Assembly (NCBI GenBank): GCA_017534305.1
Contig: JAFWCU010000035.1
Location: forward strand, 79,790 to 143,789
DNA from: Clostridia bacterium
Lineage (GTDB): Bacteria; Bacillota; Clostridia; TANB77; CAG-465
Length of the DNA stretch: 64,000 bases
Direction: 5' to 3'
Shown here: piece after piece, positions 5,683 through 26,887 of the stretch
Layout of the letters: the number at the start of each line of letters is the position of its first letter
How positions within the stretch are numbered: position 1 is the stretch's first letter
Made by a program: the position numbers and the translations under genes
The notes under the pieces: generated by a model
Seen by the model: the letters and a program-made list of their open reading frames with translations, nothing else
Told to the model about the DNA's origin: nothing
Database searches by the model: none

Positions 5683-5748
5683 TAGATAAGAGTTAGTAGG
5701 AAAAATACTCATATTATGGGAGTTCTAGGTTCGAGTCCTAGTTATCTA
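5683..5748 (+). other. tRNA-like relic (perfect T-arm plus 7-bp acceptor-like pairing, too short for a tRNA)
   Basis: TAGATAA...CTAGG-TTCGAGT-CCTAG-TTATCTA has a canonical GTTCGAGTC T-loop and a 7/7 complementary acceptor-like stem. Total length is only 66 nt, the stems are AT-rich, and I cannot fold proper D and anticodon arms. Confidence 0.35.
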
Positions 5749-5754
5749 TATATT

Positions 5755-5803
5755 GTCACTACCAGTCTCTCAGTCGAAAGACTGCTGGGTAGTGACATTT
5801 TTT
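5755..5803 (+). terminator. Intrinsic terminator after trkH and the tRNA-like element
   Basis: GTCACTACC...CAGTC-gaaa-GACTG...GGTAGTGAC hairpin followed by ATTTTTT. Confidence 0.75.
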
Positions 5804-5905: not shown

Positions 5906-5934
5906 TTGAAATGTTATGTATACTATGATATAAT
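5906..5934 (+). promoter_or_regulatory. SigA-type promoter for the 490-aa ORF
   Basis: TTGAAA, 17-nt spacer, TATAAT. Confidence 0.55.
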
Positions 5935-5956: not shown

Positions 5957-7429
5957 ATGGAAAATAGTGATAGATTTTACAGTGAATTTAAAGAAATTCT
6001 TTTAAAATGTTCTTATACTAGTACATATAAGTTTTCTTGGGCAAAGGCAATAATAGAATTATCAATAAAAGATAACAATACACATGAATACATCAATATA
6101 ACTTTTAATAGTATAGTTAGAATAATGTTTAAGTACTACTGGAATTTATATACAAAAGGTATTGTAGACAACACTTATATGGGCTTAAAAACTGAGATAG
6201 GCAATGCTATAGAAGAGTTGGCTAAAAAATACATTGGAAATTATGGAAATATAGAAAACTATGATACAGCTATAAAAAAAATAAATGGAGAAGATTATAA
6301 CAGATGTATTGAGAAAATGGAAGCAGCAGTATCAAAAGATGTTTGCGATAGATTTACTATATCAAAAGGAATACAACAAGATAATATATATGTTCATGAA
6401 AGTGGAAATAAGTATATAACTATGAAAAAGAGCCATATGAACATATTGAAAGAATCTTGTAATGAATTTTATAAGATAATCAATTATAGATGGGCAACAA
6501 CAGTTTTCAATATATCAAACGAAATTAGAAAAAAAGTTTTAGTAGAAGAAGAGTTTGAAGTAAATAGAAGTGTAGAAAATATTGAATTGTTTAATGCTGA
6601 TAACTATCATGATAAGAGTGAAATTGAACTAGAACATGAAAATGAAGAAAATATCATAAAATCAAGTAGAGATGGTATAAAAAAAGAAACTATATTACAA
6701 CTGATTGAAGAAAGAATACAAGATATAATAGTTGACAGCAAAACTATCTACGTATTAAAAGGATTCAATAGTTTTTATAATGATATAAATATAGAAGTTA
6801 AACATATAATGAATCTTAACATTGATGATTCAATAATTAATATATTCGATAATAATGTGCAAAAACTATTATTTCAAACTATAGATGTTTTAAAAGAAGA
6901 AAAACCATGTTTTTGTTTTATGGAAGAATTATTAACATTTAATAAAATTATGCCTATATCTTCGATTATTAAAAACTTAAAATACGAAGTAGAAATAATC
7001 GAAATAGGATGCTTTGAGTATTATTATCCAGGCTTTAAATATAAGGATAATAGTGAAAACGAGTTAATAACAGAAAGAATTGCTGATGACGAAAAAATTC
7101 AAAATATATATCGATATTTTGAAATAATAAAAAATAAAGTGGTGGTAGCATATAACGATATGGATATTATTAAAGAGAATGATATTCCAATCAACTACTT
7201 GTTTGACGGATTTGATGATGTAGAAAAAATGAAAAATAGGTATATTAATTCGAATAATACTGTATCTATTGATAAAACTATATCAAAAAAATCATTCATA
7301 GCTCTATTCGATGGAGCTTTATCAAATGAATTTAACAGTATACAAATTTCAAAAAATAACATTGACGATAGCAGTATGAAGTTTTTAAGCATACTTAATG
7401 AGATGGGAATTGACATACATGTAAAATAA
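5957..7429 (+). CDS. Hypothetical protein (490 aa), first gene of the accessory island
   Basis: RBS AAGGAGAG. It has its own promoter and terminator. No catalytic motif recognised. The N-terminal STYKFSWAKAIIELS segment resembles winged-helix-like modules seen at the N-termini of defence-island proteins, but that is a recollection only. Confidence 0.6.
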   Translation: MENSDRFYSEFKEILLKCSYTSTYKFSWAKAIIELSIKDNNTHEYINITFNSIVRIMFKYYWNLYTKGIVDNTYMGLKTEIGNAIEELAKKYIGNYGNIENYDTAIKKINGEDYNRCIEKMEAAVSKDVCDRFTISKGIQQDNIYVHESGNKYITMKKSHMNILKESCNEFYKIINYRWATTVFNISNEIRKKVLVEEEFEVNRSVENIELFNADNYHDKSEIELEHENEENIIKSSRDGIKKETILQLIEERIQDIIVDSKTIYVLKGFNSFYNDINIEVKHIMNLNIDDSIINIFDNNVQKLLFQTIDVLKEEKPCFCFMEELLTFNKIMPISSIIKNLKYEVEIIEIGCFEYYYPGFKYKDNSENELITERIADDEKIQNIYRYFEIIKNKVVVAYNDMDIIKENDIPINYLFDGFDDVEKMKNRYINSNNTVSIDKTISKKSFIALFDGALSNEFNSIQISKNNIDDSSMKFLSILNEMGIDIHVK

Positions 7430-7456
7430 AAGGCTGCAAAAGCAGCTTTTATTTTA
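7429..7456 (+). terminator. Intrinsic terminator after the 490-aa ORF
   Basis: AAAGGCTGC-aaaa-GCAGCTTTT hairpin overlapping the stop codon, followed by a T-rich tract. Confidence 0.6.
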
Positions 7457-7465
7457 TTTATTAAA

Positions 7466-7494
7466 TTGAGAAATTTGTCAATATATGGTATAAA
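7466..7494 (+). promoter_or_regulatory. Promoter of the Z1/GHKL/Dcm operon
   Basis: TTGAGA, 17-nt spacer, TATAAA, with TG at -15/-14 (extended -10). Confidence 0.5.
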
Positions 7495-7512
7495 TAAAAA
7501 AAGGTGGAAAAA

Positions 7513-10179
7513 ATGGGGATAGAAGAAAAAAATATAGAAATTTTGAAAAACGAAATATTTGATTCAAGAACAATTAGAAGAAAATCTTGGGATGAAATAA
7601 AAGAAAACAAAGATCTAATTTTGCAAATAATTAGGTTTAATAACAATATAGAGTTTAATGATGATGATTTCTATAAAGCAATAGAAGTATTAAAAAAAAT
7701 AGAGCAAAACACTGTGGATATTCGTTATCTTGATGATAATCAAATAAATAATCTTAAAGTTCCACAACAAAGCACATGTGCGTGGCAAATATTTAAAAAG
7801 AATTCATTAAAAAGTTATGGCTTTGAAACAATTAGAGATACAGAAGAAAGTGCATTAAAAATTTTAAATAGATTAAGAATAAATACAATTAATAAAGAAC
7901 CTGGAAAAGGACTAGTTATGGGATATGTTCAATCAGGAAAAACATTAAATATTGAAGCCTTAATAACCATGGCAGCAGATAACGGATTTAATGTTTTTGT
8001 AATGTTAACTGGAACCATAGAAAATTTAAGACAACAAAACTTAGACAGGCTAAAAAATGATATTGAATATAATGGAAAGTCAAGCGTATCATGGACTTTT
8101 GTTGATGATATTAAAAATGCAGAAAAGCACCACAAAATTTCTGGAATATTAAACAGTGAAGGAAGAATTGTGGTTACATTATTAAAGCAAAAAAATAATT
8201 TAACAAAACTAAACAAGTGGTTGACAGAATCTGTAGCAATAATGGAACAACAAAAAATGAAAGTATTAGTAATAGATGATGAGTCTGACCAAGCAAGTAT
8301 AAATACTAAAAAAGATACTAACAGAACTTCAATAAATCAATTAATTGTAGACTTGGTGAATTATAATAGATTTGGTTGCTTAAATTATATTTCATATACC
8401 GCTACACCATATGCAAATTTTTTAAATGAAAATTCTCCAGAGAGTTTATATCCAAAAGATTTTATTGTGTGTTTGCCTAAATCAAAACAATATATTGGCG
8501 CGAGTGAGATATTTGGTAAATATAGCGACATTGATAATAGCAGTGACGGATTAAATATTGTAAGGGATATAACAAAAGAAGATTTAGAATCCATAAAACA
8601 AATAGAGAAAGGAGAAAAACAGGAAATACCTGCAACGTTAAAAAGTGCTATTTGTTGGTTTATTTGTACTTTAGCTATTAGAAGATATAAAGCTGAAGTG
8701 GAAGTTGATAAAAAATTAAATAAAAGCCCGGTTAGTATGATGATTCATACTGATGCTAAAACGATAGTTCACAGAAATACGGGAAGATTCATTAAAGAAT
8801 GGATTAACTCAAATAAGCAGAATTTATTAAAATGGTGTGAAGAAGTATATAGAGAAGAATCATTAGGATTTACAAAAAATGATTTTCTAGAGGTTATGCC
8901 TAATTATGATGCAGATGGACTACATCATATCGAGGATTATCCTAATTTTGAAGATATAAAAAAATATGTAATTGAGATTTTAAATATAAAAGCATCACAC
9001 ATATACATAGATGATGATGATAGACTGAAATATCATAAAGGAATTCATGTTATAGAAGATAATAGCAATAATAGAAAAGGCGTAAATGACAATGGAGAAA
9101 TGATTAGAATTAAATATCCAGAAGAAAATGAAGTCGATTATGCAACAGGCTTTCTTATTATTGGAGGAAATACACTATCAAGAGGACTTACATTAAAAGG
9201 TCTTACAAGCTCATATTTTGCAAGAAAAACAAATCAAGTTGATTCATTAACGCAAATGGGAAGATGGTTTGGATATAGGATTGGTTATGAATTGTTACCG
9301 AGAATATGGCTTACTAGAGATTCCAAAGAAAAATTTACTGAAGCAGCATATATTGAAGAACAATTAAGAGATAATTTGGCTAGTTATGATTTAGGTACAA
9401 AACCATCAGAATATGCACCAAAAATAAAATCTTCATATTTAACAACATTTAAATTAACTGCTACTAATAAAATGCAAAATGCAGTTAAATATCAAACAAT
9501 TTATGAAAAGGTAGATAATCAAACAGTAATATTTGATGATGATATCGATATACAAAGAAACAACTTGATTAACACAATAAATTATATAAAGAACAATGAA
9601 AATAATTTAATACAAGAAAAAGATGGAAACTATGTTGAGAGAAATGTATCATATAGCGAACTATTTGATAATTTGTTAAGTAAAATCAAATTTTATGATA
9701 ATGCAAAACTATTTGGTGAAATTAAGTTCTTTATTAAATATTGTGAAGAAAAAGACAAACGAAATTGGGATGTAATAATTGAAAATTCAAAAGATAAATA
9801 TACACTTAATAATAAAAAAATTAAGGTTGGAAATATTGACATACAAACTGTAAATCGTTCTAGAAGACTAGATAATAGAAATGGTACAATATCAATTGGA
9901 GTATTATCAAACCCAAAAGATAAAACTAATGCTTATTTATATGAAACAGGAAAAGACGGAGATATATATAGTTTAAAAAGACCAAAATTATTCATATACT
10001 TCATAGATAAAGATTCAAAAGCTAATGGCTCAAAGAATAGAGCAGATATGAATTATGAAACCGATATAGTAGGTTTTAAAATCTATGTGCCTAACAAAGA
10101 TGAACAAGTAAATATGTTAAATAAAGAGAATAATAGATATTACATTTCTCAAATAATGAAAAAGGAGGAAAACTCTTAA
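7513..10179 (+). CDS. Z1-domain superfamily-II NTPase/helicase-like protein
   Basis: ORF track 7504..10179. I prefer the ATG at 7513 after AGGTGG. Motifs: GYVQSGKT (Walker A), VLVIDDESDQAS (DExD-like), YISYTATPYAN, GGNTLSRGLTLKGL. This arrangement is what I know as the Z1 domain family. Confidence 0.75.
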   Translation: MGIEEKNIEILKNEIFDSRTIRRKSWDEIKENKDLILQIIRFNNNIEFNDDDFYKAIEVLKKIEQNTVDIRYLDDNQINNLKVPQQSTCAWQIFKKNSLKSYGFETIRDTEESALKILNRLRINTINKEPGKGLVMGYVQSGKTLNIEALITMAADNGFNVFVMLTGTIENLRQQNLDRLKNDIEYNGKSSVSWTFVDDIKNAEKHHKISGILNSEGRIVVTLLKQKNNLTKLNKWLTESVAIMEQQKMKVLVIDDESDQASINTKKDTNRTSINQLIVDLVNYNRFGCLNYISYTATPYANFLNENSPESLYPKDFIVCLPKSKQYIGASEIFGKYSDIDNSSDGLNIVRDITKEDLESIKQIEKGEKQEIPATLKSAICWFICTLAIRRYKAEVEVDKKLNKSPVSMMIHTDAKTIVHRNTGRFIKEWINSNKQNLLKWCEEVYREESLGFTKNDFLEVMPNYDADGLHHIEDYPNFEDIKKYVIEILNIKASHIYIDDDDRLKYHKGIHVIEDNSNNRKGVNDNGEMIRIKYPEENEVDYATGFLIIGGNTLSRGLTLKGLTSSYFARKTNQVDSLTQMGRWFGYRIGYELLPRIWLTRDSKEKFTEAAYIEEQLRDNLASYDLGTKPSEYAPKIKSSYLTTFKLTATNKMQNAVKYQTIYEKVDNQTVIFDDDIDIQRNNLINTINYIKNNENNLIQEKDGNYVERNVSYSELFDNLLSKIKFYDNAKLFGEIKFFIKYCEEKDKRNWDVIIENSKDKYTLNNKKIKVGNIDIQTVNRSRRLDNRNGTISIGVLSNPKDKTNAYLYETGKDGDIYSLKRPKLFIYFIDKDSKANGSKNRADMNYETDIVGFKIYVPNKDEQVNMLNKENNRYYISQIMKKEENS

Positions 10180-10196
10180 TTGAGTATAAGTGATAA

Positions 10197-12242
10197 ATGG
10201 TATTAGATCAACACATAAAACGTATAGATGTAATGGATGTTGGTGGAAAAATGTTAAAAAAGTCTATTCAAAATGACAGTACTCCAACATTAGATTTATT
10301 AGTAAGAGAAGTTGTGCAAAACTCATTAGATGCAAAAAAAGATAATGTAGATTGCGTTAAACTCGAATTTAAAAATGGGAATCTTGATAATAATAAATTA
10401 ATTGAATGCTTAGGAAATATAGGAAAGAAAATAGAAAGTAAGTACCAAACATTTAACAAGAGTTGCTATATGGCTTTTAGAGATAGCAATACAACAGGGC
10501 TAACTGGGCCAATGAACCTTAAAGATGTTGTCGATAATAAGTTTGGAAGATTAATAAATCTTGTCTTCAATATTGGCAAACCACAAACAGCTGAAGGTGC
10601 TGGAGGCTCATGGGGATATGGAAAAACTGTATATTATAGAGTAGGAATTGGTTTAGTGGTATATTATACGAGAATAGTAGAAAATGGTATTTATAAGTCA
10701 AGATTAGTTATTACATTTATTGAAGATGAAGAAAATACCATTATACCATCAGGAAACATTGATAATCAATCTTTAAAAAGTGGAATCATGTGGTTTGGAA
10801 AAAATGTAAATAATAGTTTTTATCCTGTGACAAATGAAAATGAAATAAAAGAGATTTTGAATATTTTTAATATTCCACTATATACAGGAAATGAAACAGG
10901 TACAACAGTAATAATACCATATATAGATGAAGAAAAGCTTTTAGATCAAACTTTTTCAAACGATGAAGATAACAAAAATTATTTTGTATGGAACAAAACT
11001 ATTGAGGAATATATAAAGTATTCAATACAAAAATGGTATGCACCTAGATTAATGAATAGGTACTATAAAGATAATCCTTATTTATATTTCATTATAAATG
11101 GATATCCATTTGATGAATACGACGATTTTCATCCATTTTTTAAAATGATACAAAATTTATATAACAGTTGCATAGGAATTGAAAATGATAATGTTATAGT
11201 AGAAAATATAAAAATAAGAGATAGCTCCGATATTGTTGGAAAAATAGCATATGGTAAATTTACTAAATATGATATGGATATAACGCAACAAGATGCAGAT
11301 CCTTTTACTGAAATAACTAATCTTAGAAAAAATCACGATGTAAATGAACCGATTATTGCTTTTTGCAGAAAGCCTGGAATGATATTAAAGTATGATATAA
11401 AAGAGAAATGGTCAAATAAGATTAAGTTTTTAGATGAAGACAAATATTTGGTAGGATTCTTTTTGGCAAACTCAAATGCTATTTTAAAAGATAAGCCTAA
11501 CGGTCAAGAAAGTTTGGAAGAGTATTTAAGAAGCAGTGAAAAAGCAGACCATATGGACTGGAATGATGAACAAAAATGCAAAATTGTATCAAAACTACAA
11601 AGTAAAGTTCAAACAATAATTAATGATTCTTTAAAAGAAGTTGTTGAAGAAGAACAAATCGAAATAAGTAGTCCACTAAATAAGAAACTAGCTAGATTAT
11701 TTCTTCCTCAAAAAGGTTTTGGAAGAAGACCATCTGGAATTAAAGCTCAAATCCAAGAAGAAAAGAGAGTTTCTCTTTCAAATAAAATTAATGCAACAAT
11801 TAATGATATAGATGGCTCATTTTACATTGATGAAGATGATAATAAAACAAAGTCATATACCGTTAATTTTGGAAATAAAGAAACTGATATGTCTTTTGAA
11901 TTACAGCTTGTTTCTGAAGATGGTACTATTTCTCCAAGTAAATGGTATAAAGATTTTGAAAGGAGATTATTCCCAATTAAAATTCTAAAAATAGATCTTC
12001 TAGAAAAGCATTGTAATAATGATACTGAATATTTAAATAATGTGAGATTACATGAAGAAAATAAAAAATATGAAGACAAAGAATATACATTTGAATTAGA
12101 AAAGGATGAATTTGATCAAATAATAGGATTTAGAATATTAAAAAAAGAAACAATTAAATATTTAAAATTTAGAATTACATATAGATATAATGACGAAAGT
12201 TTTATAGGTTCAATTTCTAAGAAGGGAAATGCAAATGAATAA
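10197..12242 (+). CDS. GHKL (HATPase_c_3, MORC/MutL-like) ATPase
   Basis: LVREVVQNSLDA (Bergerat N-box), RDSNTTGLTG (DxGxG-like) and GGSWGYGKT (G-rich lid). The start is uncertain; the ATG at 10249 after GGTGG is an alternative. Confidence 0.7.
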   Translation: MVLDQHIKRIDVMDVGGKMLKKSIQNDSTPTLDLLVREVVQNSLDAKKDNVDCVKLEFKNGNLDNNKLIECLGNIGKKIESKYQTFNKSCYMAFRDSNTTGLTGPMNLKDVVDNKFGRLINLVFNIGKPQTAEGAGGSWGYGKTVYYRVGIGLVVYYTRIVENGIYKSRLVITFIEDEENTIIPSGNIDNQSLKSGIMWFGKNVNNSFYPVTNENEIKEILNIFNIPLYTGNETGTTVIIPYIDEEKLLDQTFSNDEDNKNYFVWNKTIEEYIKYSIQKWYAPRLMNRYYKDNPYLYFIINGYPFDEYDDFHPFFKMIQNLYNSCIGIENDNVIVENIKIRDSSDIVGKIAYGKFTKYDMDITQQDADPFTEITNLRKNHDVNEPIIAFCRKPGMILKYDIKEKWSNKIKFLDEDKYLVGFFLANSNAILKDKPNGQESLEEYLRSSEKADHMDWNDEQKCKIVSKLQSKVQTIINDSLKEVVEEEQIEISSPLNKKLARLFLPQKGFGRRPSGIKAQIQEEKRVSLSNKINATINDIDGSFYIDEDDNKTKSYTVNFGNKETDMSFELQLVSEDGTISPSKWYKDFERRLFPIKILKIDLLEKHCNNDTEYLNNVRLHEENKKYEDKEYTFELEKDEFDQIIGFRILKKETIKYLKFRITYRYNDESFIGSISKKGNANE

Positions 12243-13146
12243 TATATTAGAAAACTATCCACTTTTGGATAATGATTTGATTGTAAAATCTAAAATTAAT
12301 ATAATACCAGATGTGTATTATACAATAGATGATAACGTGAAAAAACTAAAACTTGACCAGTACAATAATAATTTATTATTAGTTGTTGACGATGAAGAAA
12401 TATGGTCACCAAAGAACAATAATTTATTTATTTCATATAAAGTTGAGATAGATAATCCAAGAGAATTTTATAGTAAAGTCGCAGGAAAAAATTCAAAATT
12501 AGGAATAGTACTAACTTGGAGCTGTAAAAGTACCAAAACAGTAAAATCTACTTTAATAAAAACTTTTGATTATACTGAAGAAAAACTAAACTTTATAACT
12601 GGGTTAAAAATTGATAAGGGAGAAATAGCTAATAAAATTAACATATCATTTAAGTTAGTTATGATAGATAATAATGATTCAAAAAATTATGCAAAGATAG
12701 TTGGAGCCGAACTTGGAGAATTACAAAATGAAATAATTGAAGTAGAAGGAAATGGTTCTATTTTTCCAATGGTATTAATAAAAGATGAAAATGGACCACT
12801 ATGGGAAGCTATTTACAATTTTGATCCTGATGAGTTAAATGAAGAATTAAATTTAAATAAAGTTTGTTTAAGAATAAATGCTTTGCATAAAAACTATAAA
12901 AAAGAAGATTATACACTTGATGGAGAAAATATGACACCTATTTTTAAAGAAATATTATCTCAATTTTTTGTGTTTCTGTTCTATAGAGCTAACTCTATAG
13001 AAGAAATTAGAAGTGAAAAATATGATAATGGTACAATTGGTGCATTTATTCAAAATTTATTATATAGTTTCGATATAGATATGTTAGATGAAATTAACGA
13101 TTTATCAAAAAAAATTAGAAAAAAGATAGATAGTTTGGATGCATAA
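12235..13146 (+). CDS. Hypothetical protein (~303 aa) within the operon
   Basis: ORF track 12229..13146. The ATG at 12235 overlaps the upstream stop (ATGAATAA), indicating translational coupling. No motif recognised. Confidence 0.6.
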   Translation: MNNILENYPLLDNDLIVKSKINIIPDVYYTIDDNVKKLKLDQYNNNLLLVVDDEEIWSPKNNNLFISYKVEIDNPREFYSKVAGKNSKLGIVLTWSCKSTKTVKSTLIKTFDYTEEKLNFITGLKIDKGEIANKINISFKLVMIDNNDSKNYAKIVGAELGELQNEIIEVEGNGSIFPMVLIKDENGPLWEAIYNFDPDELNEELNLNKVCLRINALHKNYKKEDYTLDGENMTPIFKEILSQFFVFLFYRANSIEEIRSEKYDNGTIGAFIQNLLYSFDIDMLDEINDLSKKIRKKIDSLDA

Positions 13147-13158
13147 GAAGGAGAAAAT

Positions 13159-13839
13159 ATGAATTGGAAAGAATTGAGTAATAATGACGCTTCACTAGAG
13201 TTTGAAAAATTGTTAAATGGTACAAGAAATAATGAAACAAAATTAAACTCTAGTTATGAAGAAATGAGAAACGATTTGTTAAATCTATGGAAAGAAACCA
13301 ATAATGAAATACTAGAAAAAAAGTTACCAGGGGACTATTGTTATGATTATATATTTGCTTTAAAAATGTATAATTTACTAACAAACAAATATGGCATTAC
13401 AAAGTATGAAGCTGGAAATGACAATATTTGGATGTATATACATTTAATTGTTAGCCCGGAAATTCTTAGAGATAGAATAGGAATGGACAACCCTGATAGA
13501 TATTATAAACTAAGCAGAAGATTATATTTCAAAAATTTATGGTGGTATATTTATCTTTCATGGAGAATAGATGAAGATACTACTAGAAAGATAATTGAAA
13601 ACAATTCAACTGATACGATATTACAGCTATGTGAAAGAAGCGGAAAACTTGGTTATCGAAGAGAAGTATATAATGAAATTATGTATCAAAAATATTTGAA
13701 AAAAATAAAAGATGGAAGTCCATTTAGAAGTATTATGGTACTTAATACACTTAAAGTAAAAACTATAGATCCATATATATATGATGGCGGAGTAGAAAAA
13801 TATGTACAAGATTTGATAAAAGAGGCTTTGGAGGGATAA
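13159..13839 (+). CDS. Hypothetical protein (226 aa) within the operon
   Basis: RBS AAGGAG. Trp/Tyr-rich segments (NIWMYIHLIVSPEILRDRIG, RRLYFKNLWWYIYLSWR). No catalytic motif recognised. Confidence 0.6.
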   Translation: MNWKELSNNDASLEFEKLLNGTRNNETKLNSSYEEMRNDLLNLWKETNNEILEKKLPGDYCYDYIFALKMYNLLTNKYGITKYEAGNDNIWMYIHLIVSPEILRDRIGMDNPDRYYKLSRRLYFKNLWWYIYLSWRIDEDTTRKIIENNSTDTILQLCERSGKLGYRREVYNEIMYQKYLKKIKDGSPFRSIMVLNTLKVKTIDPYIYDGGVEKYVQDLIKEALEG

Positions 13840-13841
13840 AT

Positions 13842-14732
13842 ATGAAAAAAAACATTTTTAGAGATTGCTATAATTACATGAAGAATGGACAAACTATTAT
13901 GCAAATAGAAAATACGAATAATTTATATGCTGTAAAAGAAGATGGATACTTTGGAGTCGCAGTTGATATTCCTATGGATGCTTTTGATTATGAAGAAAAC
14001 TTTGAAAATATTTTGTGTGTTACGAGATATAAAAATTTTAATGACAGTAACCATAAACTTTTTCAAATAATAACTGATAGGTTAGACCATTTAGATTTTT
14101 TCTTTGATATATGCGAAAATTTCGTATCTTTCTGCACAAAGCAAGAGAATATTTCAATATTAGTATTAAAAGCTTATTGGATTGATGAGTTAAAAGCGTT
14201 TGTTGGAAATAGGCTTGTTGAAGAAAGTTCATATTCTTTTTTAGCTGAATTAAAAGTTTTGGAATATCTATTAACAATAGGGAAAAATGCAATATTAACA
14301 AAAGATGGTACATATGATATTGAATGTGATAAAGAATATTTTGAGGTGAAGTCTACCATCAGTAGATATAACTCAAACATTCATGTAAATAGCCAATATC
14401 AATTAGTATCTAATAGCGATGAATCTTTAAAAATAGTATTTGTAAGATTGGAAGAATTAGAAAATGGAATTTCAATTATCGAAACAATTGAAAAATTAAG
14501 AATTTTGAATTATAATGTAGAAACAATACTTCAAAGGGCAAAAAGAATTGATAGCGATGCTCTAAACAAAAAATATTGTATACATGAAGCGAGAATTTAT
14601 AATGTAGATGATAATTTTCCAAAAATAACTCCAGAAATGTTTCCAAATGAAACATTTCCAAAAGGAATTATTAAAGTTGAATATACAATTGATTTGGATT
14701 CATTAACATATGAGAAAATTGATTTAAAATAG
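13842..14732 (+). CDS. PD-(D/E)XK motif protein (putative nuclease)
   Basis: RBS GGAGGG. Starts 2 nt after the upstream stop. YDIECDKEYFEVKS gives D...E-x-K spacing. Size and context match the PD-(D/E)XK motif proteins that accompany Z1/GHKL genes. Confidence 0.6.
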   Translation: MKKNIFRDCYNYMKNGQTIMQIENTNNLYAVKEDGYFGVAVDIPMDAFDYEENFENILCVTRYKNFNDSNHKLFQIITDRLDHLDFFFDICENFVSFCTKQENISILVLKAYWIDELKAFVGNRLVEESSYSFLAELKVLEYLLTIGKNAILTKDGTYDIECDKEYFEVKSTISRYNSNIHVNSQYQLVSNSDESLKIVFVRLEELENGISIIETIEKLRILNYNVETILQRAKRIDSDALNKKYCIHEARIYNVDDNFPKITPEMFPNETFPKGIIKVEYTIDLDSLTYEKIDLK

Positions 14733-14745
14733 AGGGGGATATAAA

Positions 14746-15855
14746 GTGATAAGGCTAGCAACAGTATTTAGCGGTATAGGAGCAATAGAACAAGCATTAA
14801 AACAACTTGGTATTGATTACAAAGTTGTTTTTGCGTGTGACAATGGAGAAAGATATCTTGATATTGATCAAGAAGAAATAGAAGAGAAAATTAAAGGTTT
14901 AACACCTGAAGAAAAACAAAAATATATTTCTAAAATATATAATGAAACAGGAAAAGTTAACAATGTAAAAAAATCATATTTTGCTAATTATGATATATCA
15001 GAAGATAGATGGTATGAAGATATAAGATTTTTAGATGGTAATAAATATAAAGGAAAAGTAGATTTAATCGTTGGTGGAAGCCCATGTCAAAGCTTTTCTA
15101 CATATGGTAAAAAAAGAGGATTAGAGGATACTAGAGGAACACTATTTTATGACTATGCAAGATTAATAAAAGAAATACAGCCTAAAGTCTTTATTTTTGA
15201 AAATGTAAAAGGTTTATTAAGTCATGACAAAGGAAGAACTTGGTCTGTAATAAAAGATGTATTTGAAAGTTTAAATTATAAAATTAAATATCAAGTTATC
15301 AATGCATGTGATTATGGGCTTCCTCAGCTAAGAAAAAGAGTTTTCGTAGTTGGTATAAATAAAAATATCGAAAGCGAAGAGTTTTCTTTTCCTGATAAAA
15401 TTGAACTTGAACATACAGCCAAAGATTACTTAGATGATGAAGTGGATGACAAATATTATTTGCCATTCAAAGGTTTTAGATATGTTACTACGCCAGAAAG
15501 AAACGAAGGTAGAGCTAGAGTAAATAGAGATATTATTGGATGTGAAACTGCAAATCAACAATTTAACTGGATAGGAGATTTTAGAGTAGAAAAGCCTAAG
15601 CCACAACATTATAATGATCCAAGAATATATATAGGAGAATATGAGGGACAAGAAGCTGTAGCGAGAAAAATGACACCACAAGAATGTTTAAAATTAATGG
15701 GATTTCAAGATTTTAACGTTGTAGTAGATGATAAAACAGCATACAGACAAGCCGGAAATTCAATTGCAGTACCAGTATTAAAAGAAATCACGAAATCAAT
15801 TTTAAATACAGTAAATTTTGATGGAGATGATAGTAATGGAGAAATACAAAAGTAA
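14746..15855 (+). CDS. dcm: DNA (cytosine-5)-methyltransferase
   Basis: GTG start after AGGGGG. Motifs in canonical order: I FSGIGA, IV GGSPCQSFS, VI FENVKG, VIII QLRKRVF, X GNSIAVPV. Confidence 0.9.
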   Translation: MIRLATVFSGIGAIEQALKQLGIDYKVVFACDNGERYLDIDQEEIEEKIKGLTPEEKQKYISKIYNETGKVNNVKKSYFANYDISEDRWYEDIRFLDGNKYKGKVDLIVGGSPCQSFSTYGKKRGLEDTRGTLFYDYARLIKEIQPKVFIFENVKGLLSHDKGRTWSVIKDVFESLNYKIKYQVINACDYGLPQLRKRVFVVGINKNIESEEFSFPDKIELEHTAKDYLDDEVDDKYYLPFKGFRYVTTPERNEGRARVNRDIIGCETANQQFNWIGDFRVEKPKPQHYNDPRIYIGEYEGQEAVARKMTPQECLKLMGFQDFNVVVDDKTAYRQAGNSIAVPVLKEITKSILNTVNFDGDDSNGEIQK

Positions 15856-16810
15856 AATATGGTATTTAGATAGAGGGAAAAATTATTTTACTGATGAAGG
15901 AAAAGATTTTTATAATACTATTATTAATGTGGTAAATTCAAATTATTTTACAAGTAAAATTGACTCATCAGATTTAATTGAAAAATTTCCAAACAAATAC
16001 AAAAAATCTAAAAATCCTAATGCATTATTGACATCGGCAAGAAATATAGGAATTCTTAACAAAAAAAATGTACTAGGAGAAAGTGTTAAATATTATCTAA
16101 ATAATAGACTAACATATAAAGAATTGATTTTTGAAAATCTAACAAAAATTAATTATGATAAAGACTGTTCATATAATGTTAAGCCTTTTTTTGTTATATG
16201 TAAAACATTATATGAACTGTACAAAATTTCAAAAGAAGAAGCATATTTAACTAGAAGTGATTGTAAAAATTATCTGCTAGATATAACTGATTACAATATG
16301 ATAGACTATAAATTTGCATGTAAAATTATTTCTAATAGAGATTTTGAAACATTAGAAAAAGGATATTCATTAGACATTTGGTTTAATGCTTTAAGCGAAT
16401 TTGATATGTTTAATTCTAGTAATAATAACACTATAATAAAAATTAACGAAGGGGAGATTTTATTTTTTAAAGAAGTTTCTTCAAAAGTAAATAAGGTAAA
16501 AACATATAAAAGCAACAATATCTTTAATAGTACAATTGATGAATATTGTTCTAAAGAAACTGGAATTAATTATATCATTCCAAATATTGAATTTAATTCT
16601 GGACTTGAAATTGATAGTAATACAGGAAAAGAAATATATGATTATTTATTTGGAATATCAAACAATATAAGTCAAAAATATTTTAATAATAATTATTTTG
16701 GTGTATATAAGCCTTATAGAAAAATAGCAAATATTGCAATTAGAAAAATAGAATATAATAATATGGAAATAGCTAGATTATTATATAAGATTAATAATGA
16801 GGTGGTTTAA
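15836..16810 (+). CDS. Hypothetical protein (~324 aa) overlapping the 3' end of dcm
   Basis: ORF track 15818..16810. I prefer the ATG at 15836 (GGAG 9 nt upstream), which gives a 20-nt overlap with dcm. No motif recognised. Confidence 0.55.
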   Translation: MEKYKSKIWYLDRGKNYFTDEGKDFYNTIINVVNSNYFTSKIDSSDLIEKFPNKYKKSKNPNALLTSARNIGILNKKNVLGESVKYYLNNRLTYKELIFENLTKINYDKDCSYNVKPFFVICKTLYELYKISKEEAYLTRSDCKNYLLDITDYNMIDYKFACKIISNRDFETLEKGYSLDIWFNALSEFDMFNSSNNNTIIKINEGEILFFKEVSSKVNKVKTYKSNNIFNSTIDEYCSKETGINYIIPNIEFNSGLEIDSNTGKEIYDYLFGISNNISQKYFNNNYFGVYKPYRKIANIAIRKIEYNNMEIARLLYKINNEVV

Positions 16811-17509
16811 ATGTATGGAGTACCTACAGTAAGATTACTTATTAAACCTACTTTTGATGCCCTTAAAAGATTAGGTGGCACAGGAGATAGTGAAAGTATA
16901 CAAAAGGAAGTAATAGAAATAATGGGATTAGATTATGATGCTATAAATGCACCACATAAGGACCATAGTTGTACAGAACTTGAGTATAATTTAAAATGGG
17001 CAAGAACGAACTTAAAAAACGCTAAAATAATTGAAAATTTAGAAAAAGGAATATGGAGAATTTTACCTGAATATAGAAATCATTTTATGACAGCTAATGA
17101 AGCTAATGATATAGCAAAATATAGAGAAAATAAGAATAACTATGTGAAAACCAATAAATCATCTATAATTAATCAAGAATACATTGAAAATAATTATAAT
17201 AACTTAACGCAACAAATTAGACAATTTAACGAAGAAAGAGATTGGGACCAATTCCATTCTCCAGAAAATTTAGCTAAATCTATTTCTATAGAAGCAGGAG
17301 AATTATTAGAATGCTTTCAATGGAATAATGATTATAACAAAGAAGAAGTCTGTGAAGAATTAGCAGATGTATTTACATACTGTATTATGATGGCGGACAA
17401 GCTTGGTGTTAATCCAGAAGAAATCATTTTAAATAAACTAGAGAAAACTAAGAAAAAATATCCAGTAGAAAAATCTAAAGGGGTAAGTACAAAATATGAT
17501 AAATTATAA
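16811..17509 (+). CDS. Fusion of an Mrr_N-like winged helix to a DCTPP1-like MazG nucleotide pyrophosphohydrolase
   Basis: The ATG directly abuts the upstream TAA. The N-terminus (LIKPTFDALKRLGGTGDSESIQKEVIEIMG...LKWARTNLKNAKIIEN..GIWRI) resembles Mrr_N. The C-terminus (ERDWDQFHSPENLAKSISIEAGELLECFQW...EELADVFTYCIMMADKLGV...LEKTKKKYP) aligns by eye with the dCTP pyrophosphatase 1 / MazG-like core. Confidence 0.7.
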   Translation: MYGVPTVRLLIKPTFDALKRLGGTGDSESIQKEVIEIMGLDYDAINAPHKDHSCTELEYNLKWARTNLKNAKIIENLEKGIWRILPEYRNHFMTANEANDIAKYRENKNNYVKTNKSSIINQEYIENNYNNLTQQIRQFNEERDWDQFHSPENLAKSISIEAGELLECFQWNNDYNKEEVCEELADVFTYCIMMADKLGVNPEEIILNKLEKTKKKYPVEKSKGVSTKYDKL

Positions 17510-17879
17510 TACAGAAGAAAAAAGTATACTATACATACTTCATAATATGGAACTTAATAAGTTCTTTACGAATGTTTTTGATATATATGAAATTAGAGGT
17601 GTTGTTGGCGATAAAAACGGAGTTGTTTTCGAGGTAAGAACAAAAGAAAAGGGCCACAATGTGCCACATATTCATGCTAGATATGGCGAATATAATATTT
17701 CTATTGCGATAGATACAGGTGAAGTTTTAAAAGGAAATCTGCCAGGTAAAAAGCAAAAAATCGCACAAAAATGGGTTTTAGACAATAAAGATATGTTAAT
17801 AACAAAATGGAATAATATTGTGGTAAAAGATAATTGGCCATTTAGTAATACAAAATTAAAAGATAAAGCATATAACTAG
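17496..17879 (+). CDS. DUF4160 domain protein
   Basis: VPHIHARYGEYNISIAIDTGEVLKGNLPGKKQKIAQKWV matches the DUF4160 pattern (PHIH..Y.....I.I..G....G.LP). The start is uncertain (17496 overlapping the upstream gene, or 17547). Confidence 0.55.
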   Translation: MINYNTEEKSILYILHNMELNKFFTNVFDIYEIRGVVGDKNGVVFEVRTKEKGHNVPHIHARYGEYNISIAIDTGEVLKGNLPGKKQKIAQKWVLDNKDMLITKWNNIVVKDNWPFSNTKLKDKAYN

Positions 17880-17900
17880 AGATTATATGCTTTATTTTTT
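17865..17900 (+). terminator. Intrinsic terminator ending the operon
   Basis: AAAGCATATAA-ctagaga-TTATATGCTTT hairpin spanning the stop codon, then a T-run. Confidence 0.65.
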
Positions 17901-17962
17901 GTCTTATCTTGTAACCCAGATCTCTCTGTGATAAAATATAACCATATTTTGGAGGTCGAAAT

Positions 17963-19831
17963 ATGATAGTTTACGAGGCTACAAAAGAGTTATTTGTATC
18001 AGATGTAATACAAGATAAAATTAGAGATAGAATAGATAAAAAGTTTTATGAAAAAATGGGTTATCACACAAGTGAATCAGAAAGAAAAGCTTGGGAAAAC
18101 TCTATGCAATATATGTTAAAAGTATTAGTAGATAATAATATACCTGCAGCATGTGGTATAGCTATAGAATTTAGGATACCTAATACTTCTAAAAGAGTAG
18201 ATTTTATCATTTCAGGTAAAGATGAAAGTGGTAAAAATACAGCTATAATAGTAGAACTAAAACAATGGACTGAAGCAAAAATAGTAAGTGGTAAAGATGC
18301 TATAGTTGAAACATTTACAGGACATGCAGTAAGAGAAGTAGCACATCCATCATATCAAGCATGGTCTTATGCTACAACAATAGAAGATTATAACGAAAAT
18401 GTTCAACAACAATGTATTACTCTACATCCTTGCGCATACTTACACAATTACCAAAGAGTAACACCACCAACTATATTATCTGATGTATATAAAGAATATT
18501 TAGATAAAGCACCTGCATTTGTAAAAGGTGATGTAGAAGATTTAAGAAAATTCATTACAAAGCATATTAAGTATGGAGATAATAAAGAAACACTATACTT
18601 AATAGAAAATGGAAAAATAAGACCATCTAAAGCGTTACAAGACGCATTATCTGGAATGTTAAAAGGTAATAGAGAATTTGTAATGATAGATGATCAAAAA
18701 GTAGTATATGAAACTGCATTTAGTATGGCTAAAAAATCTTATCAAGATGGAAAGAAAAGAGTGCTAATTGTAGAAGGTGGACCAGGTACAGGTAAATCTG
18801 TAGTAGCAGTAAACTTACTTGTAAATCTAACAAATGAAAATATGCTATGCCAGTACGTAACTAAAAACTCTGCACCAAGAAATATATATGCTGCAAAACT
18901 TAGTGGTGAAATGAAGAAAACTAGAATAAACAATTTATTCAAAGGTTCAGGTGCATTTGTGGATGAACCGGCTAACCAATTTGATGCTTTAATAGTAGAT
19001 GAAGCACATAGATTAAATAAAAAATCTGGTATGTTCCAAAACTTAGGAGAAAATCAAATTAAAGAAATTATTAATGCATCTAAATTTTCTGTTTTCTTTA
19101 TAGATGAATCTCAAAGAGTAACTCTAAAAGATAATGGTAGTATAGAAGAAATAGAAAAATTCATTAAAGAATTTAATGCAGAAGAAGTTAAACTTGAACT
19201 ACAATCTCAATTTAGATGTAATGGCTCAGACGGATATATAGCATGGCTAGATGATGTATTACAAATTAGAGAAACAGCAAATGATATCTTTGACTTAGAT
19301 TATGATATTAGAATTTGTGATACACCAAATGAAGTAAGAGATATAATTTTTGAAAAAAATAAAGAATGTAATAAAGCAAGACTGCTTGCAGGATATTGTT
19401 GGAACTGGATAAAGGAAGGTAAAAACAAAAGTGATGTTCATGATATAACAATACCAGAGTATAATTTTGCTATGAGTTGGAACTTAGGAAATAGTGAAAC
19501 ATGGGCTATAGATGAAGACTCTGTAAATGAAATAGGATGTATACATACATCTCAAGGACTTGAGTTTGATTATGTGGGTGTAATAATAGGTGATGACTTA
19601 AAATATAGAGATGGAAAAATAATTACAGATTACACTAAAAGAGCAAGTACAGATCAATCACTTAAAGGAATAAATAAACTAGCAAAAGAAAATGCAGAAG
19701 AAGCTAAAAGAGTAGCAGATGAAATAATAAAAAACACATATAGAACATTACTATCTAGAGGACAAAAAGGATGCTATATCTATTGTATAGATAGTGAGTT
19801 GAGAGATTATTTAAAAGAAAGATTAAAATAG
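17963..19831 (+). CDS. DUF2075-family (Schlafen-group-3-like) nuclease-NTPase
   Basis: N-terminal RVDFIISG...AIIVELKQW (D...E-x-K), then VLIVEGGPGTGKSVVA (Walker A) and ALIVDEAHRL (Walker B). 622 aa. This layout is typical of DUF2075/COG3410. Confidence 0.7.
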   Translation: MIVYEATKELFVSDVIQDKIRDRIDKKFYEKMGYHTSESERKAWENSMQYMLKVLVDNNIPAACGIAIEFRIPNTSKRVDFIISGKDESGKNTAIIVELKQWTEAKIVSGKDAIVETFTGHAVREVAHPSYQAWSYATTIEDYNENVQQQCITLHPCAYLHNYQRVTPPTILSDVYKEYLDKAPAFVKGDVEDLRKFITKHIKYGDNKETLYLIENGKIRPSKALQDALSGMLKGNREFVMIDDQKVVYETAFSMAKKSYQDGKKRVLIVEGGPGTGKSVVAVNLLVNLTNENMLCQYVTKNSAPRNIYAAKLSGEMKKTRINNLFKGSGAFVDEPANQFDALIVDEAHRLNKKSGMFQNLGENQIKEIINASKFSVFFIDESQRVTLKDNGSIEEIEKFIKEFNAEEVKLELQSQFRCNGSDGYIAWLDDVLQIRETANDIFDLDYDIRICDTPNEVRDIIFEKNKECNKARLLAGYCWNWIKEGKNKSDVHDITIPEYNFAMSWNLGNSETWAIDEDSVNEIGCIHTSQGLEFDYVGVIIGDDLKYRDGKIITDYTKRASTDQSLKGINKLAKENAEEAKRVADEIIKNTYRTLLSRGQKGCYIYCIDSELRDYLKERLK

Positions 19832-19988: not shown

Positions 19989-21296
19989 ATGAAAAAACTA
20001 AAAGAATTTACAGTAATACTATTAGAAAAAGAATATACAGCTAAATTTGACCAAGAAAATAGTGAATTAATAATAGATGATGAAAAGAAATTACGCAATA
20101 TAGCTAGAACAGACATAATTAAAATAAGAGATATGAATAATTGCTTTGTTAATAGTAAAAGTGAACTCTATTTTTGGTATGTCGAAAAATGTATACATGT
20201 AAATAGTGACTATGTTCTGTTTAAGGTAAAGTATTTTGTAAGTGATCCATTAAATAGAGGAAAAGCATTAAAAAGAAAATATAATAAGATAGTTTTAGCC
20301 GGTTCAAAAACAGTAAATAGATTACTACACCCTGCAGACTATTTTTATAATAATCTAGAAGAATCTAACTGTAATATTCTATATAATAAAAAAGTAATGA
20401 AATCATTTACAGTTAAATACAAAAAGAAAGAATTGCATTTTGAAATATATATTGGTAAATTAATAAATAATGGTAATTTATCAAGATTTGATGACTATGT
20501 AAAAATAGAAATCGAATCAAAAAAGAATATGAATATAAACGAAGCATTAATGTTAATTAAAAAGATTAAACAAGCTTTTGTTGTTTTAAGCGGTAACGAA
20601 AGTATTATTTTTAAATATATAGAATTAATTAATGAGACTTCTTATATTTACATTAATGAAAATGGGAGTGAAGATTTTTACAAATTAATGTCAGTAAATT
20701 TGTATCAAAATGAAATATTAGAGAAGATAATTAAGGGAACCATAGAGAATAAAAAATTAGAATATAGATTTTTTGAAAAGAACAACATAGAAATAACAAC
20801 ACTATATATTTGTAGAGCCTTTGAAAAAATCGCAGAGAAAAGAAGAATTAAGCCTAATAGATCAGATGCCGAAAATAGAATAATTACCGAATTACTAAAA
20901 AAATTACATACATTTGAGTCAAATGGATTTATAGATGGAGTAGAAAATACACTAAACACCTATAACAATAAGTTTTATTCACATTTAAAATGGGCTTTTG
21001 CTAAATACTATTATTATTTTGATGAAAGTAATATGTGTTGGCCTGATTTCTTTATAAAAAAAGTAGGTAAAAAAACAGAATGTGGTATTGAATTTGATGA
21101 TAGTGCTTATAGATTAAATAAACTGAGAAATAACATAGCACATGATGATATGACAAATATTATATTAGCCGAGGATAAAAACATAATTAATGGATTAGGA
21201 TATATTACATATATAATGTTATTAGAGGAGTTTGGATTAAGTAAAGATGAAATAATGTTGTTTATGACCTGGGGGATGAATTTGTTTATAGAATAA
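19989..21296 (+). CDS. Hypothetical protein with a C-terminal HEPN-like Rx4H motif (Abi/ApeA-like candidate)
   Basis: ORF track 19983..21296; ATG at 19989 after GGGGAG. The C-terminal YRLNKLRNNIAHDD gives R-NNIA-H. The N-terminal ~350 aa are unassignable. Confidence 0.5.
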   Translation: MKKLKEFTVILLEKEYTAKFDQENSELIIDDEKKLRNIARTDIIKIRDMNNCFVNSKSELYFWYVEKCIHVNSDYVLFKVKYFVSDPLNRGKALKRKYNKIVLAGSKTVNRLLHPADYFYNNLEESNCNILYNKKVMKSFTVKYKKKELHFEIYIGKLINNGNLSRFDDYVKIEIESKKNMNINEALMLIKKIKQAFVVLSGNESIIFKYIELINETSYIYINENGSEDFYKLMSVNLYQNEILEKIIKGTIENKKLEYRFFEKNNIEITTLYICRAFEKIAEKRRIKPNRSDAENRIITELLKKLHTFESNGFIDGVENTLNTYNNKFYSHLKWAFAKYYYYFDESNMCWPDFFIKKVGKKTECGIEFDDSAYRLNKLRNNIAHDDMTNIILAEDKNIINGLGYITYIMLLEEFGLSKDEIMLFMTWGMNLFIE

Positions 21297-21321
21297 TATA
21301 AATTTTAAGTAGTTGTTAATA

Positions 21322-21356
21322 AAAAGCAATAGATACCTATCTATTGCTTTTTTCTT
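21322..21356 (+). terminator. Intrinsic terminator at the right edge of the island
   Basis: GCAATAGATA-cc-TATCTATTGC hairpin flanked by an A-run and a T-run. Confidence 0.7.
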
Positions 21357-25822: not shown

Positions 25823-25918
25823 GTATTTCTAAAACGGAAATTTAATATATAATAAATATGCGAAAGGTTTCTTTTTAAGAAATATTGTGGTATAATATAT
25901 ACTAAGGAAGTGATTAGT

Positions 25919-26887
25919 GTGGGATTAAGTGCAAATCTAAGAATACGTAGAGAAGAAATTAAAATGACTCAAAAAGAATTAGCTCAAAAAATAGGTGTAG
26001 AACCAGCAACAATTTCTAAATATGAATCTGGTATGAATGAACCAAATATTAAAAATCTTAAATCTATAGCCGAAGCTCTAGATACTTCAATAGACGAACT
26101 AGTAAAAGAGGAAGAAGATGTAGTAGACTTATCTAAAGTTAATCTATTAGAAATACTAAGAGAGCAAAAGAGAAACAAACTAGAAGGAAATATTTATCAC
26201 TATACTCAAGTAAAATTTGCATATAATACAAACCATATTGAGGGTAGTACATTAACAGAAGAGCAAACTAGATATATATATGAAACCAAAAGTCTATTAA
26301 CTGATCAAAATACATTATCATTTACTAAACTAGATGATATTTATGAAACAGTTAATCATTTTAGACTAGTAGATTATATGATAGATAATGCGGATAAAAA
26401 ACTAACAGAATCAATGATAAAAGAATTTCACAAAATATTAAAAGCCGGAACAAGTGATGAAACAGAAAAAGGATATAATATTGGAGAATACAAAAGCATA
26501 GAAAATTCTGTTGGCAATCTTAAAACAGCTAAACCAAATCAAGTAGCCAAAGAAATAAAAGTATTATTAGAAAAATACAATTCAAAAGAAAAAATAAAAG
26601 TTGAAGATATAATAGATTTTCATGCAAAATTTGAAGCTATACATCCATTTCAAGATGGAAATGGTAGAATAGGAAGAATGATAATGTTCAAAGAATGTCT
26701 AAAAAATAATATAGTACCTTTTATTATTTTAGATAAAGATAAACAATTCTATTATAGAGGACTATATCAATATCAAGAGAGCAAAGAAAAAGGTTATCTA
26801 ATAGATACATGCTTAAACGCACAAGATCAGTATAAAGCTTCTATGGAATATTTCTTAAAAGGTTACACAAAATTAAATAATAAATAA
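25919..26887 (+). CDS. XRE-family HTH domain fused to a Fic domain
   Basis: MTQKELAQKIGVEPATISKYESG (HTH) and HPFQDGNGRIGR (Fic motif HxFx[D/E]GNGRxxR). ORF track 25910; I prefer the GTG at 25919 after AAGGAAG. Confidence 0.8.
   Translation: MGLSANLRIRREEIKMTQKELAQKIGVEPATISKYESGMNEPNIKNLKSIAEALDTSIDELVKEEEDVVDLSKVNLLEILREQKRNKLEGNIYHYTQVKFAYNTNHIEGSTLTEEQTRYIYETKSLLTDQNTLSFTKLDDIYETVNHFRLVDYMIDNADKKLTESMIKEFHKILKAGTSDETEKGYNIGEYKSIENSVGNLKTAKPNQVAKEIKVLLEKYNSKEKIKVEDIIDFHAKFEAIHPFQDGNGRIGRMIMFKECLKNNIVPFIILDKDKQFYYRGLYQYQESKEKGYLIDTCLNAQDQYKASMEYFLKGYTKLNNK

Follow-up and report, generated by a model that had tools for sequence, protein, structure and literature searches.

A nine-gene operon lies on the plus strand, at positions 7513-17879, of a 64,000-nucleotide (nt) stretch of DNA from a Clostridia bacterium (GenBank assembly GCA_017534305.1, contig JAFWCU010000035.1, positions 79,790 to 143,789), here called the window. 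The best explanation of this operon, to which we give a probability of roughly 60%, is that its first seven genes constitute an ATP-dependent, restriction-modification-like defence operon and that the last two, transcribed with it at the 3' end, are unrelated passengers. The core belongs to a widespread family of anti-phage restriction systems that has been predicted computationally, and the seven-gene form, which includes the gene called g7 below, is a new variant of that family. The analysed DNA (about 28% GC) is identical to a scaffold of the metagenome assembly ERZ28653837. The operon and its signals are composed as follows (aa, amino acids):

Upstream terminator, 7429-7450 (+): ends the preceding gene, g0; -11.9 kcal/mol, z -3.7.
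Promoter-like element, 7466..7494 (+): TTGAGA at 7466-7471, 17-nt spacer and TGg-TATAAA at 7486-7494 (extended -10), read directly.
g1, 7513..10179 (+): 888 aa, SF2 helicase-like NTPase with a Z1 domain (Pfam Z1 PF10593, 8e-50).
g2, 10197..12242 (+): 681 aa, GHKL-like (paraMORC-type) ATPase (PADLOC PDC-M33A, 2e-12, residues 32-220).
g3, 12235..13146 (+): 303 aa, immunoglobulin (Ig)-like beta-sandwich plus C-terminal helical bundle in the predicted structure.
g4, 13159..13839 (+): 226 aa, Arg/Trp-rich DUF6339 protein (precomputed annotation plus 16 of 51 family members).
g5, 13842..14732 (+): 296 aa, DUF4420 PD-(D/E)XK nuclease candidate (Pfam DUF4420, 8e-20).
g6, 14746..15855 (+): 369 aa, full-length C5-cytosine DNA methyltransferase, Dcm (Pfam DNA_methylase 8e-72; TIGR00675 dcm, 243 bits).
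g7, 15836..16810 (+): 324 aa, helical, clade-specific protein that matches no family; overlaps Dcm by 20 nt.
g8, 16811..17509 (+): 232 aa, Pfam Mrr_N (3e-9, residues 10-84) and MazG-like (7e-24, residues 157-232).
g9, 17496..17879 (+): 127 aa, DUF4160 (Pfam 3e-17), DhiT-toxin-like.
Intrinsic terminator-like hairpin and T-run, 17862..17901 (+): 14-bp AT-rich stem, hairpin at 17862-17896, with the g9 stop codon in the loop.

The Z1-GHKL-g3-g4-DUF4420 set, together with a co-diverging Dcm, is a widely conserved module. For the census, 80 loci were taken from a species-representative genome collection through an alignment of Z1 homologues, and their open reading frames (ORFs) were scanned with phmmer and family hidden Markov models (HMMs); a Z1 relative is encoded in 574 of the 599 candidate stretches of that collection. 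A wider set of 95 related loci, including metagenome loci, and a plasmid set of 99 matching records were also used. The Z1 protein is present in all 80 loci, the GHKL protein in 76, g3 in 73, g4 in 71, the DUF4420 protein in 59, Dcm in 73 and Vsr in 43, most absences corresponding to truncated contigs. The gene order Z1-GHKL-g3-g4 is constant: the GHKL gene is found directly 3' of Z1 in 76/80 loci, and g3 is always located between the GHKL gene and g4 (73/80). The position of Dcm varies, being between g4 and DUF4420 in 30 loci and past DUF4420 in 30. The operon-adjacent Dcm co-diverges with Z1 (Spearman 0.57, 60 loci) and can therefore be considered a genuine component. The hosts include Bacilli, Clostridia, Pseudomonas, a Chlorobiaceae metagenome-assembled genome, Methanobrevibacter and Methanomassiliicoccaceae. 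Since g3 and g4 are co-conserved with the core, g7 is found in the near clade only, and g8 and g9 are not shared, the composition of the operon is that of a clade-specific variant and not of a new composite. A first-pass annotation of this DNA had left the choice between a new variant and a composite system; the first alternative stands, as a variant within the predicted family, and the second is not supported.

Several of the related loci depart from the common arrangement. The module is present twice in tandem on one contig of the Chlorobiaceae genome (L019:4003-18145), with the GHKL, g3, g4 and DUF4420 genes and Z1 in each copy. At L007:9824-18497, g4 is directly followed by Dcm and no DUF4420 ORF was detected, so this locus may represent a naturally derived form of the seven-gene operon that lacks the nuclease. 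In a subgroup of nine loci (L014, L027, L030, L063, L067, L068, L074, L075 and L077), the DUF4420 position between g4 and Dcm is filled by an unassigned ORF of ~1 kb, which may encode an alternative nuclease.

The three proteins that would form the engine keep their catalytic motifs throughout the family. Across 81 sequences, g1 and its homologues conserve the Walker A motif (G137-T144), DDExDQ (255-260), YTATP (295-299), GGxTLxRGLT (551-560) and the Z1 signature D577-S-L-T-Q-M-G-R-W-F-G587; by likeness to H.CglI, the DEAD-Z1 subunit described below, we propose that g1 is a double-stranded DNA (dsDNA) translocase motor. No Pfam or NCBIfam model matches g2, those for GHKL in Pfam included, and a profile search of the Protein Data Bank (PDB) gave no match for it. 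Its Bergerat-type motifs are nevertheless kept, in the right order, in 77 homologues: E38-x3-N42-x2-D45, D96-x2-T99-x-G101-x2-G104, G136-G-S-W-G-x-G-K-T144 and T236. When the GHKL profile of g2 was aligned by hhalign with E. coli MutL, for which an approximate sequence was used, motif I was the only one aligned. In g5, residues E136, D159 and E168-V-K170, which correspond to the E-D-ExK pattern of Iyer et al. 2008, are at least 90% conserved (60 sequences). PDB sequence and profile searches also returned no matches for g1, g3, g4, g7, g0 and the downstream gene g10.

With respect to the two smaller conserved proteins, g3 belongs to no Pfam family. Its homologues form 345 clusters among 1.84 billion representatives, and the best 150 listed are all stand-alone proteins, nearly all of 300-330 aa. 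The AlphaFold2 model of g3 (predicted local distance difference test, pLDDT, 91.8) contains an Ig-like beta-sandwich at residues ~20-215 followed by a helical bundle. Foldseek relates it to generic beta-sandwich proteins only (RhoGDI, UNC119, ApaG), with E ~3e-4 and low TM-scores, and on this modelled fold we propose that g3 is a non-catalytic adaptor. The conserved residues of g4 include W91, R106, R121, W128-W129, R160 and R190, and hhalign detected no relation of g4 with g7 or with g0. Searches of plasmids by tblastn gave no match for g3 and g7. The 303-aa and 226-aa ORFs, g3 and g4, had been considered unassignable together with the 324-aa ORF, g7. This no longer applies to the first two, which are core parts, because they are co-conserved with the core (73/80 and 71/80 loci) and appear among the components of the 'Type I' system of Miller et al. 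2022; the third is limited to the nearest clade.

The methyltransferase g6 has its catalytic PCQ Cys at residue 114 and is proposed to be the self-marking enzyme. Gene g7 is confined to the nearest clade, in which Z1 is about 50% identical (L003-L008, L083, L086-L093), and it lies directly 3' of Dcm in all near-clade loci whose sequence extends to this position. Its AlphaFold2 model (pLDDT 85; predicted TM-score 0.87) is nearly all helical. Foldseek found nothing significant for it in PDB or viral structures, the best weak matches being winged-helix domains (E ~1), and three g7 homologues carry a topoisomerase-type zinc ribbon.

The relatives of g7 in other systems are more informative about its possible role. 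In Bacillus suaedaesalsae (L033), the N-terminal ~200 residues of g7 align to the N-terminus of a 668-aa McrB-like R1 protein (26% identity, 5e-12), which is located between two Dcms (58% [M1] and 45% identical to g6) and a RE_LlaJI protein. A second LlaJI-type case with the g7 N-domain in R1 was found in a metagenome scan (L094), where the Dcm is 69% identical to g6; AAA_5 and RE_LlaJI neighbours are present in both loci. A further apparent match, L049, was discarded as an artefact that came from the AAA_5 part of L033 in the HMM. In LlaJI, experiments have shown that R1 alone determines specificity, and it is the N-terminal half that distinguishes this subunit (PMC1459862). Because the N-domain of g7 is homologous to the N-terminus of LlaJI-type R1 subunits, we propose by analogy that g7 is a DNA target-recognition subunit cognate to Dcm, which would read the Dcm target.

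The third context is provided by Mza-type operons. Three loci (L095-L097) have the order Dcm (68% identical to g6), a g7-like 420-aa protein, MzaB, MzaC, MzaD and MzaE, with matches of 8e-46, 6e-117, 1e-10 and 3e-56 for the four Mza proteins. The g7-like protein occupies the MzaA position in these loci (L095:8887-19158, L096 and L097), an arrangement that suggests that some Mza systems are methylation-guarded. The likeness of the Dcms in LlaJI- and Mza-type contexts to g6 (58-69%) spans the variable region between motifs VIII and IX. Residues W9, D12, R13, N16, L65-T66, R69, P117, Y153, D180-I-W182, N184 and F192 of g7 are invariant across all three contexts. The same Dcm lineage and a domain of ~200 residues are thus found with three unrelated NTP-driven nuclease engines: paraMORC/Z1/DUF4420, Mza (MzaB-E) and the McrBC-like LlaJI. 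Tentatively, and at somewhat less than even odds, Dcm and a g7-type reader could form a portable 'mark-and-read' specificity cassette. If so, the Z1/paraMORC family and the Mza-type systems would be true restriction-modification systems with exchangeable specificity subunits, and g7 would offer a handle on self/non-self discrimination.

The gene preceding the operon may also be related to this function:

g0, 5957..7429 (+): 490 aa, transcribed separately, no family matches; has its own promoter-like site (5906-5934) and the terminator at 7429-7450.

Residues 9-183 of g0 are 27% identical (4e-9) to the C-terminal extension of a g7 homologue, P0144, from the same operon type (L083:8737-10269), and residues 22-209 likewise match L092:10001-11983 (25% identical, 7e-5). 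Such fusions between the N-terminal ~180 residues of g0 and g7 homologues, found in two sister operons, suggest a joint function of g0 and g7.

Taken as a seven-gene restriction-modification-like system, the operon could operate as follows. Dcm would methylate a short, possibly asymmetric, target on host DNA, and g7 would bind the same target if it is unmethylated, as the N-terminal half of LlaJI R1 does. The DEAD-Z1 motor would hydrolyse ATP and translocate along dsDNA in the manner of H.CglI, the GHKL protein could be a dimerising clamp, gated by ATP, through which sensing is linked to cleavage, and the DUF4420 PD-(D/E)XK protein would cut the DNA. The beta-sandwich and helices of g3 and the DUF6339 protein g4 would be structural or DNA-contacting adaptors.

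Several observations weigh against this interpretation. The same Dcm lineage occurs without g7 in L080, L011, L060 and L071, the small ORFs beside Dcm in L080 and L011 are unrelated to g7, and g7 is absent from most of the family. Therefore, the core must work without g7 or use another reader, and a hypervariable target-recognition region was found in none of the core proteins. The resemblance of g7 to winged-helix domains is weak, and g7 could be an adaptor to Dcm instead of a DNA reader. The assignment of g2 to the GHKL group is based on motifs only, and g8 and g9, being co-expressed, might modulate the system. With respect to the literature, we found no experimental study of the Z1/GHKL/DUF4420/Dcm family in a search that was not exhaustive and with the 2023 version of PADLOC-DB, so that a newer named system is possible.

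The nine ORFs form one tightly packed unit in which the successive junction gaps, from g1 to g9, are 17, -8, 12, 2, 13, -20, 0 and -14 nt, and a purine-rich Shine-Dalgarno-like stretch lies 5' of most of the start codons. For instance, AGGTGG precedes the ATG of g1 at 7513, which is a better start than the GTG at 7504 given by the ORF tool because the latter falls within the ribosome-binding site. The promoter-like element is located 16 nt past the upstream terminator and 19 nt ahead of the g1 start codon. Promoter-like hexamers appear at chance level in DNA of 28% GC such as that of the window (135 found vs 124 expected), so the operon promoter is called from its position and not from statistics. 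The 3' hairpin (-12.5 kcal/mol, z -4.7; 0/200 shuffles fold as well) was missed by a consensus terminator scan because its stem holds too few G-C pairs. The single expression unit described in the first-pass annotation agrees with these signals, namely the upstream terminator, the one promoter-like element (a positional call) and the 3' hairpin with its T-run. The coordinates of its nine consecutive ORFs and of their junctions were reproduced exactly, and every protein motif that it quoted is present in the translations. Since g8 and g9 overlap or abut their neighbours and precede the one terminator that can be recognised in the operon, both should be expressed together with the system.

Co-expression does not extend to co-conservation: g8 and g9 are not conserved with the core and are passengers. 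Residues 5-88 of g8 are 44% identical to the N-terminus of a canonical Mrr encoded 3' of g7 in L006 (46% over residues 38-88 in L004), and over residues 132-232 g8 shares 75-83% identity with stand-alone MazG genes of 105 aa (L005, L080, L006 and L007). No full-length match of g8 was found in the 95 related loci or the 99 plasmid records, the plasmids matching the MazG half only. The slot 3' of g7 is occupied in sister loci by a canonical Mrr with Mrr_N and Mrr_cat (L004, L006, L093), by a CmpB-like gene in L003 and by DUF6998 in others. As each half of g8 corresponds to a different gene in sister loci, g8 is a chimera, most likely produced by a deletion that fused the 5' portion of an Mrr gene with MazG from a MazG/SLFN-type helicase pair. 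Its identification as an Mrr Type IV restriction endonuclease was rejected because a MazG-like domain takes the place of Mrr_cat, the complete Mrr being that of L004 and L006.

For g9, no homologue was found in any related locus beyond the window's own contig, and it is most simply an orphan toxin-like insertion. A DhiT/DhiA type II toxin-antitoxin was considered and rejected: the NCBIfam toxin_DhiT score (70 bits, 70.1) is under the cut-off of 100, the 83 nt to g10 leave no room for a downstream antitoxin ORF, and the upstream neighbour is the MazG fusion. The gene that follows is:

g10, 17963-19831 (+): SLFN-group-3/DUF2075 helicase (Pfam 2.5e-105) with an N-terminal D...ELK nuclease-like motif.

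This protein is weakly similar to PADLOC PDC-S41, Nhi and AbiO. A stand-alone MazG gene directly precedes a SLFN/DUF2075-type helicase gene homologous to g10 in L005, where the pair is upstream of the core, and in L080; L006 and L007 have the same MazG and no helicase was seen alongside. MazG neighbourhoods on plasmids are heterogeneous, the pairing with the SLFN helicase holding only in related loci. Because of this pairing in L005 and L080, g10 and MazG probably constitute a two-gene defence module of their own, of which the MazG part has been fused into g8 in the window. Tight translational coupling is thus not a proof of functional unity, since the nine genes include two lineage-specific passengers, one of which is chimeric.

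Other explanations of the operon have to be weighed against the seven-gene reading. All nine genes could be one composite in which m5C marks self DNA, ATP drives sensing and cleavage, the Mrr_N::MazG protein depletes the nucleotide pool and the DUF4160 protein is an effector or regulator. The common promoter and terminator, the overlapping or abutting junctions, the completeness of both g8 domains and the recurrence of a stand-alone MazG near the system in L005, L006, L007 and L080 are consistent with it. However, g9 has no homologue in related loci, the g8 fusion has no full-length match there or in plasmids, its halves belong to two separate genes in sister loci, the MazG adjoins a helicase gene in L005 and L080 (upstream of the core in L005), and the gene 3' of g7 differs among sister loci (Mrr, DUF6998, CmpB-like), all of which makes this explanation unlikely. 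A nine-gene composite with nucleotide-pool manipulation had been put forward earlier with co-conservation as its own refutation test, and it is co-conservation that splits the operon, the g8 fusion and g9 being those without matches in related loci. Alternatively, Dcm and g7 could be an ordinary, independent Type II restriction-modification pair in which g7 is the endonuclease, the Z1/GHKL/DUF4420 module being separate and methylation-independent. Their 20-nt overlap, the fact that they always occur together and the extra Dcm-containing restriction-modification-like genes near many related loci fit this proposal, and the invariant D12, R13, D180 and N184 of g7 could in principle be catalytic. 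It is hardly probable, since the confident g7 model is nearly all helical and lacks a PD-(D/E)XK, HNH, GIY-YIG or PLD-like sheet, and the g7 N-domain was never found in a lone Dcm+g7 pair; in every case it accompanies an NTPase-nuclease engine in which RE_LlaJI or DUF4420 is the nuclease. Besides, a Dcm present in 73/80 loci and co-diverging with Z1 is not easily separated from the module.

An explanation that is also improbable, if slightly less so, is that the core does something other than classical restriction of unmethylated DNA. It could be an abortive-infection or Type IV-like system, or act in a MutL/Vsr style on mismatches or hemimethylated intermediates, Dcm and Vsr being a signal rather than a protection. 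Functional links among MutL, Vsr and Dcm are known and are invoked by Iyer et al. 2008 (PMC2292703); AIPR, an abortive-infection protein, is encoded in the related Mza type, and the core proteins showed no variable domain for target recognition. The presence of Vsr in 43/80 loci points in the same direction, but Vsr would be expected beside any Dcm, as it repairs deaminated m5C. Moreover, the window clade has neither Vsr nor AIPR, and the link of g7 to the N-terminus of LlaJI R1 points to recognition of unmethylated sites, which is what the seven-gene reading proposes.

Beyond g10, the island contains or adjoins other elements. A 435-aa ORF at 19989-21296 (+), with no Pfam or PADLOC match and followed by a terminator at 21321-21352, closes an apparent island located between TrkA/TrkH genes and a gene for a major facilitator superfamily (MFS) transporter. 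A further defence-type gene about 8 kb downstream, at 25910-26887 (+), encodes an HTH_3 + Fic protein with a strong match to the PADLOC candidate PDC-S04 (1.5e-104) and to SoFic. At the upstream edge of the island there is a tRNA T-arm-like sequence, CTAGGTTCGAGTCCTAG, at 5717-5745 (+), followed by a long hairpin and T-run at ~5755-5800. Neither ARAGORN nor Rfam called a tRNA at 5717-5745, and the region 5717-5800 may represent a small RNA, an attachment site or what is left of a tRNA.

Operons of the Z1/GHKL/DUF4420/Dcm kind are widespread, and predictions that they are restriction systems date from 2008 and 2022. The window provides an intact, compact seven-gene example from a low-GC, Clostridia-like gut organism, and g7 is a candidate specificity subunit common to Mza-type and LlaJI-type systems that makes both target recognition and self/non-self discrimination directly testable.

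The closest described system is the 'Type I' predicted defence system of Miller et al. 2022 (Supplementary Table 11), composed of Z1 (925 aa), a MORC-like protein (704 aa, a non-significant match), DUF4420 (298 aa), DUF6339 (231 aa) and an unknown protein (310 aa), with a cytosine methyltransferase given in the main text as the third core gene (PMC9523054). These are the same six components as g1-g6, matched by domains and sizes and not by alignment, and the taxonomic spread is similarly wide. In contrast to the window clade, the 'Type I' system, a computational prediction only, does not list g7 and has an associated DNA-repair endonuclease (Vsr) that is not in the window. Iyer et al. 2008 described operons with an SFII helicase bearing a C-terminal DThhQXuRhFG domain, an E-D-ExK protein and MORC/paraMORC ATPases, with DCM, VSR and AIPR as frequent neighbours, and the window core fits their third operon type (PMC2292703). 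The signature is present in g1 as DSLTQMGRWFG, together with E-D-ExK, GHKL-type motifs and a cytosine methylase. That the Z1/GHKL-like/PD-(D/E)XK/Dcm core is of this kind had been stated in the first-pass annotation, and family matches and conserved motifs support it, with g2 as a candidate for the GHKL-type ATPase. The absence of Vsr- and AIPR-like genes noted there also holds. This absence and the lack of a Pfam GHKL match for g2 separate the window from the 2008 operons, and g3, g4 and g7 are not mentioned in the relevant text of that paper (PMC2292703).

Mza systems (mzaABCDE; Gao et al. 2020, as cited in PMC9523054) are more distant. The Z1 protein and the DUF4420 nuclease are distant homologues of MzaC and MzaD, and a g7-like protein and the same Dcm lineage head the Mza-type operons L095-L097. 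Membership in Mza was rejected, since the scores for MzaC (178 bits, 177.8, cut-off 1500) and MzaD (47 bits, 47.1, cut-off 420) are far under the NCBIfam equivalog cut-offs, g2 has no MzaB match and no AIPR (MzaE) was found in the ten proteins scanned; g3 and g4 match no Mza model, as PADLOC gave them no match whatever. MADS was also rejected, in line with the earlier reluctance to equate it with this locus: it has an N6-adenine methyltransferase and different genes, of which mad6-8 are mandatory, while the enzyme here is a C5-cytosine methyltransferase and no PADLOC mad model matched in the nine proteins.

The LlaJI-type loci share with the window Dcms that are 58-69% identical to g6 (L033, L094) and an R1 N-terminus homologous to the g7 N-domain. 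They differ in the AAA_5 GTPase and RE_LlaJI nuclease, which are absent here, and in having two methyltransferases instead of one, the engine of the window being Z1/GHKL/DUF4420. With CglI and NgoAVII the common features are an m5C methyltransferase and a DEAD-Z1 motor, g1 having Z1, Walker A and DExx (PMC5861437, PMC4267653). However, CglI has three genes and its R subunit merges site-recognition and nuclease domains (PMC5861437); no such protein exists among the nine, and no sequence match to PDB chains was detectable. In the window, with at least seven genes, the nuclease is the DUF4420 protein, recognition is proposed for g7, and a GHKL ATPase, g3 and g4 are added. H.CglI, the DEAD-Z1 subunit, is described as an ATP-driven dsDNA translocase that activates a separate nuclease (PMC5861437), and CglI is thus the best experimental model for the way in which g1 might act.

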